Of a DNA stretch of 4,285 nucleotides, positions 1 through 3,805 are shown piece after piece. Both the position numbers and the translations under genes were made by a program. Below the pieces are notes generated by a model. The model did not search any database, was not told the origin of the DNA, and saw nothing but the letters and a program-made list of their open reading frames with translations. Positions within the stretch are counted from its first letter, which is position 1. Every line of letters begins with the position of its first letter. Source of the stretch: a plasmid. The stretch lies in NCBI RefSeq assembly GCF_057098645.1, contig NZ_JBXSPU010000005.1. One strand, written 5' to 3'.

Positions 1-915
1 ATGAGCGCCGCGCTTCAATACTTCGAAGAAAATTTACCTCATCGTCCCTATCACACGGATGATCTCGCTTTCGGCCTTCGCATCTCCGGCAAAGGGCGCG
101 CTCTTCTTGCGCGGTACATCCAGCAGAACCAGCCTCATGCGCAGTTCTGGCTGGTTTTTGACGTTGACCGCGAGGGGGCAGCGATTGACTGGAGTGACCG
201 GAACGCTCCCGCGCCGAACATCACCGTAAAAAATCCTGTGAACGGTCATGCTCACCTGCTCTACGCGCTCAATATCGCCGTGAGAACCGCGCCGGACAGC
301 TCGGTTAAGGCGCTGAAATACGCCGCTGCGATTGAACGTTCGCTGTGTGAGAAACTTTGTGCTGATGTGAACTACAGCGGACTGATTTGTAAAAATCCGT
401 TCCACCTGGAATGGCAGGTGATGGAGTGGCGAGAGGAAGCCTATACCCTCGGTGAACTGGCTGATTATCTCGATTTGAGTGCCTCAGCGCGCCGTAGCAT
501 CGATAAACGTTACGGGATGGGGCGAAACTGCCACCTGTTCGAAATGACGCGCAAATGGGCTTACAGGGCGATTCGTCAGGGCTGGCCAGCATTCTCACAG
601 TGGCTTGATGCCGTGATTCAGCGTGTCGAAATGTACAACGCATCGCTTCCCGTTCCGCTTTCTCCGGCTGAATGTCGGGCTATTGGCAAGAGTATTGCGA
701 AATACACGCACAGGAACTTCACGCCGGAAACTTTCGCACAGTATGTGGCTGATACGCACACGCCAGAAATTCAGGCTACACGCGGTCGCAAGGGCGGTTC
801 TAAGTCTAAGCGCGGCACAGTAGCTACATCAGCACGCACGCTGAAACCTTGGGAGAAATTAGGGATCAGTCGCGCCTGGTATTACCAACTGAAAAAACGA
901 GGTCTCGTAGAGTAG
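1..915 (+). CDS. rep: ColE2-family plasmid replication initiator Rep (origin-specific, primase-type initiator)
   Basis: Uninterrupted 304-codon ORF from ATG at 1 to TAG at 913-915. The translation resembles, from memory, Rep of ColE2/ColE3-type plasmids (about 300 aa), for example WSDRNAPAPNITVKNPVNGHAHLLYAL, NYSGLICKNP and RQGWPAFSQWLDAVIQRVEMYNASLPVPLSPAECRAIGKSIAKYTHR. A ColE2-like origin sequence follows the stop directly, as in that family. The start coincides with the window edge, so upstream signals cannot be checked here. Not verified by search. Confidence 0.88.
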   Translation: MSAALQYFEENLPHRPYHTDDLAFGLRISGKGRALLARYIQQNQPHAQFWLVFDVDREGAAIDWSDRNAPAPNITVKNPVNGHAHLLYALNIAVRTAPDSSVKALKYAAAIERSLCEKLCADVNYSGLICKNPFHLEWQVMEWREEAYTLGELADYLDLSASARRSIDKRYGMGRNCHLFEMTRKWAYRAIRQGWPAFSQWLDAVIQRVEMYNASLPVPLSPAECRAIGKSIAKYTHRNFTPETFAQYVADTHTPEIQATRGRKGGSKSKRGTVATSARTLKPWEKLGISRAWYYQLKKRGLVE

Positions 916-966
916 ACCAAATAAGCCTATATCAGATAACAGCGCCTTTTTGGCGTCTTTTTAAGC
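916..966 (+). other. ColE2-type origin of vegetative replication (Rep binding and priming site)
   Basis: ACCAAATAAGCCTATATCAGATAACAGCGCCTTTTTGGCGTCTTTTTAAGCAG lies immediately 3' of rep. It closely matches the ColE2-P9 origin region as I recall it (...AGATAAGCCTTATCAGATAACAGCGCCCTTTTGGCGTCTTTTTGAG...). It contains a small hairpin CGCC(TTTTT)GGCG followed by a T-run, which could also act as the rep terminator. Exact minimal-origin boundaries are not determinable by eye. Confidence 0.6.
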
Positions 967-1140: not shown

Positions 1141-1407
1141 CTACGGTTTCGCAGGTGGTTTGGGTAGCTTCTCCAGCTCGTTAATCAGCGGTTGTATCCG
1201 GTTCACATCGGCCTGTCTTGTGACTTCCTTTCGCAGGAACTGGAGCAGGAACGCACGCAGTTGCGCCTCTTCCGGCCTCCGTACCCTCGCCAGCATGGCA
1301 GCCCCCACAATGACTTTTTGCGCCGTGTCCAGGCTCCGGCTCTTCGCCTTCAGGCGCTGCAATCTGGCCTCAGTTTCGGCAATCTTCTGTTCGAGTGTTC
1401 TGCTCAT
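1141..1407 (-). CDS. mobC: Mobilization accessory protein MobC (RSF1010 MobC-like)
   Basis: 88-codon ORF on the minus strand with ATG at complement of 1405-1407 and stop at complement of 1141-1143. GGAG Shine-Dalgarno at complement of 1415-1418 with a 7-nt spacer. An N-terminal coiled-coil-like segment (LEQKIAETEARLQRLKAKSR) is followed by DTAQKVIVGAAMLARV, matching the conserved core of RSF1010 MobC as I recall it (ETRRKVLVGAMILAKV). It is divergent from mobA with an oriT-like sequence between them, as in RSF1010. Confidence 0.8.
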   Translation of the reverse strand: MSRTLEQKIAETEARLQRLKAKSRSLDTAQKVIVGAAMLARVRRPEEAQLRAFLLQFLRKEVTRQADVNRIQPLINELEKLPKPPAKP

Positions 1408-1431
1408 TTTGTGACTCCGTGCGCGGTGAAA

Positions 1432-1487
1432 AATCGCATTTTAGCGCGTCACTGGTAGTTTAAAAACTGAGCTGGCATAATGCACGG
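1432..1487. promoter_or_regulatory. Candidate divergent promoters for mobC (minus strand) and mobA (plus strand)
   Basis: Plus strand: extended -10-like TGgCATAAT (1473-1481), about 100 nt upstream of the mobA ATG and just before the oriT-like inverted repeat. Minus strand: TAAAAT (complement of 1438-1443), about 30 nt upstream of the mobC ATG. The -35 elements are weak on both strands. By-eye match to sigma70 consensus only. Confidence 0.3.
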
Positions 1488-1491
1488 CATA

Positions 1492-1546
1492 TCACGAAGT
1501 GCGCACTTATACAATCTTCACTTCGTTTCGATTGTGTGCGCCCTGC
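1492..1546 (+). other. Candidate origin of transfer (oriT) with MOBQ/RSF1010-like nic region
   Basis: Inverted repeat ACGAAGTG (1494-1501) / CACTTCGT (1521-1528), which includes the 12-bp palindrome AAGTGCGCACTT (1496-1507). It is followed 7 nt later by GTGCGCCCT (1536-1544), matching the RSF1010/R1162 nic sequence TAAGTGCG|CCCT as I recall it. Predicted nick between 1540 and 1541 on the plus strand. The position between divergent mobC and mobA fits IncQ-type mob modules. Confidence 0.5.
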
Positions 1547-1585
1547 GGGGCTGAAAGAAAACGGCAAAAAGGCATTACGGCAGAA

Positions 1586-3805
1586 ATGGCGATTTATCAT
1601 CTCAGCATGAAAATCATTTCGCGAAAAAACGGCTACAGTGCCGTTGCTTCTGCTGCCTACCGTTCCGGCTCTGTCATACCCGATGACCGTACCGGATTAA
1701 TCCACGATTACACCCGTAAACGCGGCGTTGATGATGCGGTCATTCTCACCCCTGCGAATGCACCGTCCTGGTGTGGTGACCGTTCCGTTCTCTGGAATGC
1801 GGTCGAGAAAGCCGAACAGCGCCGGAACTCCCAGCTGGCAAGGGAGATTGAACTCGCCATTCCCCGTGAGATTTCCCGCGAGGCCGCACGGGAGGCCGTT
1901 CTCGCTTTTGTCCGGGAAAACTTTGTCAGTCGGGGCATGATTGCCGATGTGGCGTTCCATCATATGGACCGGACCAACCCCCATGCACACATCATGCTGA
2001 CCACGAGAGCTGTCGGGGAAACGGGATTCGCAGGAAAGGTCAGGGACTGGAACGACCGGGCACTCGCCGAGACGTGGCGCGCATCATGGGCTGACCATGC
2101 GAACAGAGCGCTTGCGAACGCCGGCTACCAGGAAGAGATAGACCATCGTTCATACGAGCGTCAGGGACTGGAGAAAGCGCCGGGCCTTCACCTCGGAAAG
2201 GCTGCCTGTGCGATGGAAAAACGGGGCATGGAAACAGAACGCGGTGAGCAGAACCGCCTGATTAACAGCCTTAACCTGGAAATACAGGTTTCCCGCACAA
2301 GGCTGGCAGTCATCCAGGTACAGGAGAACGTGCGGAAACGGGAACTCAGCGATGCCGCACGTCGTGCAGCGGAAGCCCTTAATCTGACCATTCCCGCCGC
2401 GAATGCCTCAGCGGATACCCTGCGGGAATTCATTGCCACACTGCCGCAGGAATGCGGGAACGCATGGGAGATGACACCGGAGTTCGTGGCGATGAACGGG
2501 AAGGCAAACGACATCAAACGTGAGGGGAATGCGCTGGTGAAAGAGCGGGATATTCTCGAAAAAGAGATGACCGGACTCAGAAAAGCCCGTCCGGTAGCGT
2601 CCATCCTGTCAGAGCTTCCCCTGATGACATGGGCTGAACCGGAATACCGCAAAAGACAACTCCGCTTCTGGAAACTCGAGAAACAGATTGAATCTCTTCT
2701 CCGCACCTACAGGGCCGTGAAAGAACGGGACATTCCCGTCCGTCGTCAGGCCTTTGAAACGCAGTGGAATACGTGGATTTCGCCGGGAATGGCAGAGCTG
2801 AAAGAAAAACTGTCAGCACGGGAAGCGGAGCGGCGCAGGGAGGAAGCCGAAGCGGAAGCGCGCCGGAAGGAACAGGAATATGACGCACGGCTGAAACACC
2901 ATGATAACCATCGCCTGAGCCGAGAAACGGCATTAGCCGGGGTTATTACGGAGCTGGGGCGTGCCAGAGAGCCGGGAACGGGCAGGATAACCCGCTACAT
3001 GATGCTGAGTAACAGAGCCGGAGAATTCACGGTATGGGGTGATGAGCTGGCGCATTACCCCCAGAGTGTTCATGACCCGGTGAATGTTTACCTGTCGCCA
3101 GGCGGGGCTGTGATGGTCTCGGATATACGTGAGGGAATGCCAGAATCTCATGAGACGATGGCGCGGCCTGAGCGTGTGAGAATGTATTCCGGTGCGACGG
3201 TCCGGCATGTACTGGAACAGATGCGCCAGGGGTGGCCCTCTTACGGTTTTCCGGCGCTGCCGCATCACTGGCCGGATAATTTTTATTTCAGCGACGACCG
3301 CAGGCCCGCAGCCTCTCCGCTGCCGTCAGCGCACCGGGTGGACGTCACCGCTTATGCGGCACCGGAGCAACTCATGCCCGTTGTCTTTTCGACAGAGCGA
3401 AACAGCAGGACGCTGAATCTGCTGTTGTGCGAAGGGCCGGAGGAAATGCTTGTCGGTTTTGTGCGCCTGGAGGACGAGCTGCGTCCCGTTCTTGCGCTTC
3501 CGTCGCCGGATTACAGTCATCTGATGGTAAGCATCATCACAGAGAACGGGATACACCTGGCAGGCTACGGTGAGGCCATAAACCGTGATGCTGATACTCC
3601 GTACCCACCGGAACCGAAGCTGATGCAGTTCAGGCTTAAGGGCTGTCAGGACACGCTTTTTGCTGCCATCAACAAACCGGAAGAGATGCCGGATTATCTC
3701 TTCCGTCAACTCGGATTTAATCAGACCTGGCATGAATGGAAGCGGGACGAACAGCACAGGCAACAACAACGACGCCCCGGACATTACCGGGGCATGAGTA
3801 TGTGA
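1586..3805 (+). CDS. mobA: Mobilization relaxase MobA (MobA/MobL family, MOBQ), with a long C-terminal region of unrecognised function
   Basis: Frame is open from GTG 1499 to TGA 3803-3805. I place the start at ATG 1586 because the product then begins MAIYHLSMKIISR, the canonical N-terminus of MOBQ relaxases (RSF1010 MobA begins MAIYHLTAKTGSR). Catalytic Tyr25 is at codon 1658-1660 and the histidine-triad motif HHMDRTNPHAHIM at residues 125-137 (about 1958-1996). WADHANRALANAGYQEEIDHRSYERQG also matches RSF1010 MobA (WADHANRALERAGHDARIDHRTLEAQG). No strong Shine-Dalgarno precedes 1586, so the start is not exact. Residues from about 240 to 740 have no motif I recognise. Confidence 0.9.
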   Translation: MAIYHLSMKIISRKNGYSAVASAAYRSGSVIPDDRTGLIHDYTRKRGVDDAVILTPANAPSWCGDRSVLWNAVEKAEQRRNSQLAREIELAIPREISREAAREAVLAFVRENFVSRGMIADVAFHHMDRTNPHAHIMLTTRAVGETGFAGKVRDWNDRALAETWRASWADHANRALANAGYQEEIDHRSYERQGLEKAPGLHLGKAACAMEKRGMETERGEQNRLINSLNLEIQVSRTRLAVIQVQENVRKRELSDAARRAAEALNLTIPAANASADTLREFIATLPQECGNAWEMTPEFVAMNGKANDIKREGNALVKERDILEKEMTGLRKARPVASILSELPLMTWAEPEYRKRQLRFWKLEKQIESLLRTYRAVKERDIPVRRQAFETQWNTWISPGMAELKEKLSAREAERRREEAEAEARRKEQEYDARLKHHDNHRLSRETALAGVITELGRAREPGTGRITRYMMLSNRAGEFTVWGDELAHYPQSVHDPVNVYLSPGGAVMVSDIREGMPESHETMARPERVRMYSGATVRHVLEQMRQGWPSYGFPALPHHWPDNFYFSDDRRPAASPLPSAHRVDVTAYAAPEQLMPVVFSTERNSRTLNLLLCEGPEEMLVGFVRLEDELRPVLALPSPDYSHLMVSIITENGIHLAGYGEAINRDADTPYPPEPKLMQFRLKGCQDTLFAAINKPEEMPDYLFRQLGFNQTWHEWKRDEQHRQQQRRPGHYRGMSM

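Follow-up and report, generated by a model that had tools for sequence, protein, structure and literature searches.

The analysed stretch of plasmid DNA (4,285 nucleotides, hereafter the window) contains three genes, namely rep, mobC and the mobA relaxase gene, and is the backbone of a ColE2-type (Col156) MOBQ42 mobilizable plasmid (Table 1). It combines the domain pair of a ColE2-type Rep with divergent mobC and mobA genes and a 178-bp spacer between the latter two. Among the 1582 plasmid records matched by the window, pColE8 (NC_012882.1) was the best (98.6% identity). The best matches also included the cryptic plasmid pDETEC85 (4296 bp, typed Col156 / MOBQ), which resembles the window in its ~4.3-kb backbone and in the apparent absence of a colicin operon. 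Table S2 of Garcillán-Barcia et al. 2019 (PMC6856555) assigns both pColE8 and ColE9-J to MOBQ42. The relaxase domain of MobA was recognised by Pfam MobA_MobL (PF03389; E = 2.3e-70, 237 bits against a cutoff of 26.7) and by the NCBIfam MobQ equivalog (260.9 bits, cutoff 200). MobC had no Pfam or NCBIfam match in the profile search; the counterparts of its ORF in relatives are annotated as mobilization protein or MobC. The element is present in 533 of 5426 complete E. coli genomes (~10%), nearly always on a plasmid, and because of this prevalence a correct annotation of its oriT and nic site aids the prediction of which small plasmids are mobilisable.

Table 1. Genes and sequence features of the window. 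Positions refer to the + strand; a slash within a sequence marks a nick.
Feature	Position	Strand	Remarks
rep, ColE2-type	1-915		Pfam Replicase (PF03090) and PriCT_1 (PF08708)
mobC, relaxase accessory protein, 88 aa	1141-1407	-	Divergent from mobA; taken from the ORF list
mobC-mobA intergenic region, published oriT of MOBQ4 plasmids	1408-1585		Exactly 178 bp
Conserved oriT core	1483-1559		Sole part common to relaxase-less ~2-kb ColpVC plasmids
Invariant block CACGAAGTGCGCACTTATACAA	1493-1514		Most conserved stretch of the BLAST-derived alignment
Inverted repeat of the preliminary description, ACGAAGTG and CACTTCGT	1494-1501 and 1519-1526		Real in the window, structurally unconserved
Perfect palindrome AAGTGCGCACTT	1497-1508		Within the invariant block
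Predicted nic core TAAGTGCG/CACT	1498-1509	-	Predicted nick between + coordinates 1502 and 1501
29-codon extension of the mechanical ORF	1499-1585	+	Non-coding
IR2, left arm ACAATC	1511-1516		Nic-proximal arm on the minus strand, ending 9 nt 5' of the predicted nick
IR2, hypervariable loop	1517-1529		Length and sequence vary freely among relatives
IR2, right arm GATTGT	1530-1535
Nic-like motif of the preliminary description, GTGCGCCCT	1536-1544	+
Small covarying hairpin	1538-1551		G1538-C1539, bulged G1540, C1541-C1543, loop TGC, G1547-G1549, G1550-C1551
mobA, MOBQ4 relaxase, 739 aa	1586-3805	+	Y25, E87, E89, H125, H133, H135

Judged by sequence identity, the mobC-mobA spacer is the origin of transfer (oriT) of this plasmid, as a preliminary description of the region had proposed. 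Its 178 bp are 96% identical to those of ColE9-J and 94% identical to those of pIGWZ12, and overall identity to pColE8, ColE9-J, pIGWZ12 and others is 94-98%. The same region, originating from a ColE9-J-like MOBQ42 plasmid (pRC2) and from the MOBQ41 plasmid pE2022_4 (from which pRC1 is derived), was transferred after cloning in a non-mobilizable vector with the parental plasmid and R64drd11 provided (PMC6856555). The window copy is the same element, without functional difference, and its mobilisation is known from these 94-96% identical plasmids. MobA was needed for transfer and MobC helped, deletion of mobC causing only a moderate drop (PMC6856555). The best helpers were MPF_I plasmids, e.g. 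R64, and the MOBQ4 relaxase preferred an oriT in cis, transfer of the cloned 178 bp in trans being 500-1000-fold lower than in cis (PMC6856555). Neither of the two pieces into which the 178 bp were split (1-70 and 71-178) was transferred, the nick was left unmapped and inverted repeats are absent from the text of that study (PMC6856555). The narrower proposal that 1492-1546 constitutes oriT comes near the conserved core described below (~1483-1559), but since both published subfragments failed, the functional region extends further or at least has no defined limits. When the published split is numbered from mobA, the cut falls at 1515/1516, inside the inverted repeat here called IR2; when it is numbered from mobC, the cut falls at 1477/1478 and the failing 71-178 piece would hold the whole core. 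An Rfam search of the window returned no family, and a promoter and terminator scan of 1300-1700 gave no result. The location of oriT between mobC and mobA, as well as the ATG start of mobA, are already documented in published work and RefSeq gene models. The system is an ordinary one that has been characterised before; the new elements here are a specific predicted position for the unmapped nick (1502/1501 on the minus strand), a predicted recognition hairpin (IR2) and a side observation on orphan copies of the core.

Conservation of the region was assessed in two sequence sets. A sensitive BLAST search with the 178 bp yielded MOBQ4 plasmids and a set of ~2-kb ColpVC plasmids, which were aligned without selection on the invariant block. 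Metagenomes were scanned with the invariant 18-mer, resulting in 120 loci with 51 distinct contexts; these include relaxase-linked relatives with a MobA identity of only 35-51%, and the exact 18-mer is found as well in contexts that have nothing else in common. In this metagenome set the 18-mer is conserved by ascertainment, and the plasmid BLAST set alone is unbiased. Base pairs were counted on 28 distinct sequences (alignment A1). On the mobA-sense strand, the conserved architecture reads (C)ACGAAGTGCGCAC-TTAT-ACAA(A/T)C-(2-27 nt loop)-G(T/A)TTGT-GTGCG-(small hairpin, free in sequence). The relaxase gene is located 3' of this architecture in six of seven distant relatives, with the core oriented as in the window, and one relative (L115) has a relaxase-like ORF on the opposite side of the core.

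The covariation is concentrated in IR2 and the small hairpin. IR2 was paired in 99.4% of cells, the compensatory change T1515A + A1531T being present in 9 of the 28 distinct sequences, and its stem is retained with the above range of loop lengths (2-27 nt) in distant relaxase-linked relatives. IR2 and the small hairpin (1538-1539, 1541-1543 / 1547-1549, 1550-1551) together were 98.7% paired with three pairs changed on both sides (31 cells), and their covariation score of 0.251, against 0.085 in shuffles, was reached by none of 500 shuffles; controls in which the pairing was slid were 33-56% paired. The pairs 1541:1549 and 1542:1548 were found as CG/CG, GC/UA and AU/UA, and the small hairpin of distant relatives shows further variants (TC/GA, TT/AA and longer stems). 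The IR2 stem is extended by the pairing of GTGCG (1536-1540) with CGCAC (1502-1506). IR2 with this extension is also the minimum free energy fold of both single strands; its z-scores (-1.9 and -1.3) are unexceptional, and for this reason covariation rather than folding energy was relied on.

For comparison, an RSF1010-like IncQ1 plasmid (L014) was used as a stand-in for RSF1010. On the relaxase-sense strand, this plasmid reads GCGCACTTA-CCGGTTTCTC-TTC-GAGAAACTGG (112 nt to the relaxase ATG), the pSK41-type oriT reads GCGCACTTAT-GCGAACG-TTC-CGTTCGC-GTGC (108 nt) and the window reads GCGCACTTAT-ACAATC-N13-GATTGT-GTGCG (85 nt). All three thus display GCGCACTTA(T) followed by an inverted repeat, and the complementary strand of each has the canonical MOBQ layout of a hairpin, 8-9 nt ((A)TAAGTGCG) and the nick. 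The window resembles RSF1010/R1162 (MOBQ1) in the position of oriT between divergent mobC and mobA, in its predicted nic core TAAGTGCG/C, in the inverted repeat on the 5' side of nic (8 nt away in RSF1010, 9 nt in the window) and in the placement of GCGCACTTA plus repeat ~100 nt upstream of the relaxase ATG. In both, the nick falls on the mobC-sense strand, as a prediction in the window: it is situated 88 nt upstream of mobC in the RSF1010-like plasmid, and the predicted minus-strand nick of the window 94 nt upstream of mobC. The two differ in the stem (10 bp with a 3-nt loop in RSF1010, 6 bp with a 13-nt loop in the window) and in position +2 (C in RSF1010, A in the window), and the window additionally has an extended stem (GCGCAC/GTGCGC) and, downstream, a hairpin that covaries. 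R1162 MobA works well in trans, whereas MOBQ4 relaxases prefer cis (PMC6856555), and the relaxase domains of the RSF1010 type and the window are only distantly related (E = 8e-11). The nearest solved relative of the MobA relaxase domain is NES of pSK41/pLW1043 (PDB 4HT4; E = 1.6e-30). The pSK41 oriT has GTGC after the repeat, as in the window, and there GTGC is not the nick core; the pSK41/pLW1043 oriT matches the Gram-positive consensus NcgtNtaAgtGCGCcCTta. It differs from the window in stem sequence and loop length, in its Gram-positive host and in belonging to a conjugative plasmid. The position at which NES nicks the pSK41-type oriT is one that we presume.

Since the MOBQ4 nick is unmapped in the accessible literature, its strand and position in the window were predicted by homology. 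The comparison argues for a nick that probably separates + coordinates 1502 and 1501 on the minus strand. The experimentally cleaved RSF1010 substrate has the core TAAGTGCG/CCCT (PMC4814116), and the best match to the RSF1010 12-mer TAAGTGCGCCCT in the window is TAAGTGCGCACT on the minus strand at 1498-1509 (11/12, one mismatch), compared with two mismatches at the + strand motif that the preliminary description had favoured. Read on the minus strand, the region consists of a hairpin followed by ATAAGTGCG/CACT, and its layout, spacing and orientation to the relaxase gene match those of RSF1010 and pSK41: a predicted nic core resembling TAAGTGCG/CCCT is located upstream of the relaxase gene, on the relaxase-antisense strand, and an inverted repeat (IR2) is found 9 nt 5' of the predicted nick on that strand. 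A nic core antisense to the relaxase gene is common to the RSF1010-like plasmid (L014), the pSK41-type plasmid (L136), the window and six of the seven distant relatives, and the 9-mer ATAAGTGCG also occurs in the pSK41-type oriT. Because the core is a perfect palindrome, AAGTGCG/C can be read on the + strand too. When the three candidate nic sites were scored against longer published consensus sequences (NWACCNNTAAGTGCGCCCTYNN for MOBQ, NcgtNtaAgtGCGCcCTta for Gram-positive systems), each had 12-14 matches and the scores did not separate them. The minus strand is preferred because of the position and spacing of the conserved, covarying repeat, because of sequence conservation and because of the orientation to the genes in the two reference systems. 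A boundary at 1501/1502 is possible for three different indels, namely a 9-bp tandem duplication (boundary 1501/1502 or 1502/1503) seen on four distinct sequence backgrounds, an insertion of 2 bp (L012) and a deletion of exactly 1502-1504 (3 bp; L013). They resemble traces of faulty nick religation, which is only suggestive because the metagenome set was selected on an intact 18-mer.

By homology, MobA would act as a single-tyrosine HUH relaxase (Y25), aided by MobC, which would not be strictly required. It would recognise the GATTGT/ACAATC hairpin (1535-1530 / 1516-1511) and the next 9 nt, ATAAGTGCG, on the minus (mobC-sense) strand, cleave G/C between + coordinates 1502 and 1501 via Tyr25 and stay attached to the 5' C. 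MobA would then pilot the minus strand 5' to 3' into the recipient through the helper conjugative system, with mobC and rep entering first and mobA last, as in RSF1010. The extended stem, of which GTGCG at 1536-1540 would be the other half, and the downstream CCC...GGG hairpin, which appears free in sequence, may present or sequester the nick site, or bind MobC. Of the single-stranded DNAs 5'-CGCACACAATCGAAACGAAGTGAAGATTGTATAAGTGCGCACTTCGTG-3' (minus strand) and 5'-ACAATCTTCACTTCGTTTCGATTGTGTGCGCCCTGCGGGGC-3' (+ strand), MobA would be expected to form a covalent complex with the first alone.

The preliminary description had instead pointed to an inverted repeat at 1494-1528 and to the nic-like motif GTGCG/CCCT. 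On that reading the relaxase would bind the repeat 1494-1501/1519-1526 on the + strand and cleave at 1540/1541, with mobA entering first; this is an unlikely course of events. Both of the elements on which it was built exist in the window. The inverted repeat is perfect over 8 bp with 17 nt between its arms (the rough chance expectation of an 8-bp repeat with a loop of <40 nt in 178 nt is ~0.1), but it ends at 1526, 2 nt earlier than was described. The motif GTGCGCCCT is present once in the window, on the + strand; it agrees with the RSF1010 core at all nine of its positions and is rare by chance (0.06 expected per window; 12 of 200 shuffles matched). On that strand its 5' side is also flanked by an inverted repeat, IR2, which ends at 1535. 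GTGCG after IR2 is largely kept in relatives, and some distant relatives have GTGCG-CCCCCTAC, RSF1010-like on the 3' side, and + strand sequence 3' of GTGCG (CCCCCTACGGGGG) that recalls the sequence 3' of the RSF1010 nick.

What speaks against this reading is how its two elements vary. Across the 28 sequences the repeat 1494-1501/1519-1526 was paired in 88.8% of cells, with zero compensatory changes, covariation equal to that of shuffles and variation that only breaks pairs; its right arm falls within the hypervariable loop of IR2 and is missing from distant relatives. It is thus not retained as the recognition hairpin. At the proposed nick, 15 of 27 distinct close variants have GT or AT in place of CC at positions +1/+2, and these changes are compensated at 1548-1549, therefore the two positions behave like stem bases rather than a nick site. 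In pDETEC85, pRHB23 and all ColpVC copies, the CC is GT or AT. The CCC of the motif is the 5' arm of the next hairpin, and since this hairpin covaries, CCCT represents that arm plus one loop base and is unconserved as a nick context. The spacing from repeat to nick would be 5-6 nt, compared with the 8-9 nt of RSF1010 and pSK41, an insertion of 1 nt between repeat and GTGCG is tolerated, and GTGCG itself is replaced by GTGCT, GTACG, GCGCG or ATTTG in some relatives. The site is moreover on the relaxase-sense strand, opposite to the strand of the nick core in RSF1010 and pSK41. The RSF1010-like 9-mer that catches the eye on the + strand is probably a decoy that arises from the stem extension and the covarying hairpin.

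Still less probable is a nick on the + strand within the palindrome, GAAGTGCG/CACT between 1503 and 1504. This site lies in the invariant block, agrees with the RSF1010 12-mer at 10 of 12 positions and has the top score (14/17) against the MOBQ consensus NWACCNNTAAGTGCGCCCTYNN, but it is without a conserved inverted repeat on its 5' side, the conserved repeat being 3' instead, and homology with the orphan copies begins just ~10 nt upstream of it. Its orientation is opposite to that of RSF1010 and pSK41. The position 1503/1504 also falls outside the boundaries of the 9-bp duplication (1501/1502 or 1502/1503) and of the 3-bp deletion (left boundary 1501/1502).

Compared with its relatives and with solved relaxases, mobA begins at the ATG at 1586, and the preliminary description was right both on this start and in finding the protein recognisable as MobA only from there. 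The mechanical ORF runs from GTG 1499 to 3805 (768 aa), and the 87 nt from GTG 1499 to ATG 1586 account for 29 codons. Position 1 of the NCBIfam MobQ, TraA_Ti and two PRK profiles aligns with the Met at 1586 (residue 30 in the extended ORF), and the crystal chains of NES (4HT4) and MobA (2NS6) start at the residue aligned with Ala2 of the product from ATG 1586. The catalytic residues of MOBQ4 relaxases have been numbered Y25, E87, E89, H125, H133 and H135 in publication, and all six are at these positions solely with a start at 1586. Every relative has an ATG at, or at most two codons from, the aligned start position; the GTG of the core is out of frame in L132, L058 and L063, and an in-frame stop separates core and start in L063, L083, L090 and L101. 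Hence the 768-aa ORF is an artefact, produced when a frame is opened at the first start codon that follows a stop. A real 29-codon extension, with MobA translated from GTG 1499 and oriT inside the coding sequence, is highly improbable: the frame is open from 1499, also in the close MOBQ4 relatives examined, and by eye a strong Shine-Dalgarno sequence precedes neither GTG 1499 nor ATG 1586, but the profiles, both crystal-structure N-termini, the published numbering and the interrupted or shifted frames of relatives all point to the ATG, and variation in the extension obeys base-pairing rules instead of a coding pattern. The concern that automated annotation would over-extend the gene is unfounded because PGAP/RefSeq and GenBank records already begin mobQ at the ATG corresponding to 1586. 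An oriT feature is absent from the one full RefSeq record inspected.

A separate observation concerns the ~2-kb ColpVC plasmids, whose only encoded product is a Rep_1 rolling-circle initiator; they lack a relaxase, yet share the core. In BLAST, the ColpVC copies share only window positions 1483-1559 (query positions 76-156), with 78-90% identity. A pC194-type double-strand origin (CTTGATA) was sought in the ColpVC plasmids to exclude that the shared element is their replication origin, and a convincing site was not found. The ~75-bp core (1483-1559) might be a portable oriT module, functional by itself in nature, by which ColpVC plasmids are mobilised by co-resident MOBQ4 relaxases, a tentative suggestion that we regard as somewhat doubtful; the 500-1000-fold cis preference and the failure of the laboratory subfragments speak against it. 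More speculatively, the near-symmetric arrangement GCGCAC-hairpin-GTGCGC could offer a cleavable GTGCG/C on both strands.

ColpVC plasmids of about 2 kb, whose sole coding content is a Rep_1 rolling-circle initiator, carry the oriT core as an orphan copy that is 78–90% identical to that of the window. They lack a relaxase and are typed as ‘mobilizable’ in PLSDB/MOB-suite. A 500–1000-fold cis preference has been published for MOBQ4 relaxases (PMC6856555), with which the presence of orphan cores on relaxase-less plasmids sits oddly. The core may serve some other role in the ColpVC plasmids, since a pC194-type dso was looked for in these plasmids and no convincing one was found. The coordinates of the features discussed here are collected in the table below.

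Coordinates of features in the window and at loci carrying a copy of the oriT core
Feature	Position	Strand	Remarks
Region following rep, AGACCAAATAAGCCTATATCAGATAACAGCGCC	window, about 913-955		directly past rep stop
MobC, 88 aa	window 1141-1407	-	
mobC-proximal part of intergenic region	window 1408-1482		
Short palindrome AAAAT-CGC-ATTTT	window 1430-1442		by eye on sequence
oriT core found as orphan copy	window 1483-1559		L006-L011, L013; example L006 837-918
Indel hot spot	window 1493-1504		L033, L062, L066, L099, L108, L111, L130, L012, L013
Relaxase-like ORF	L115 2212-2907		
Core copy on IncF plasmid	L012 4001-4064		

Within the core, an indel hot spot adjoins the predicted nick. The 9-bp tandem duplication CACGAAGTG is seen on four different sequence backgrounds, the core copy of the IncF plasmid (L012) has a 2-bp insertion near the predicted nick, and one ColpVC copy (L013) has lost exactly positions 1502-1504. 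The junction 1501|1502 is a possible boundary for the duplication, the insertion and the deletion alike.

Among MOBQ4 plasmids the mobC side of the intergenic region is conserved, and the orphan copies lack it. Besides the palindrome, GC-rich flanks were noted there by eye. This part may contain a putative mobC promoter/operator or MobC binding site; a consensus promoter scan covering it found nothing. MobC itself had no match in Pfam or NCBIfam. Its name varies by record (hypothetical protein, mobilization protein or MobC), and its start codon also differs between records, giving a gene of 267 or 276 nt.

The sequence that follows rep is presumably similar to the ColE2 ori sequence. The 32-bp replication origin of ColE2-type plasmids is located just downstream of rep (PMC6856555).

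In L115, a distant relative, the relaxase-like ORF sits on the upstream side of the core and is directed towards it; of the seven relatives, this is the sole one to depart from the conserved relaxase-downstream orientation. The L012 core copy is flanked by IS26 and ISKpn26 elements on a 144-kb IncF conjugative plasmid of Shigella flexneri (NZ_CP055071.1), and is presumably what remains of a small plasmid that was captured.
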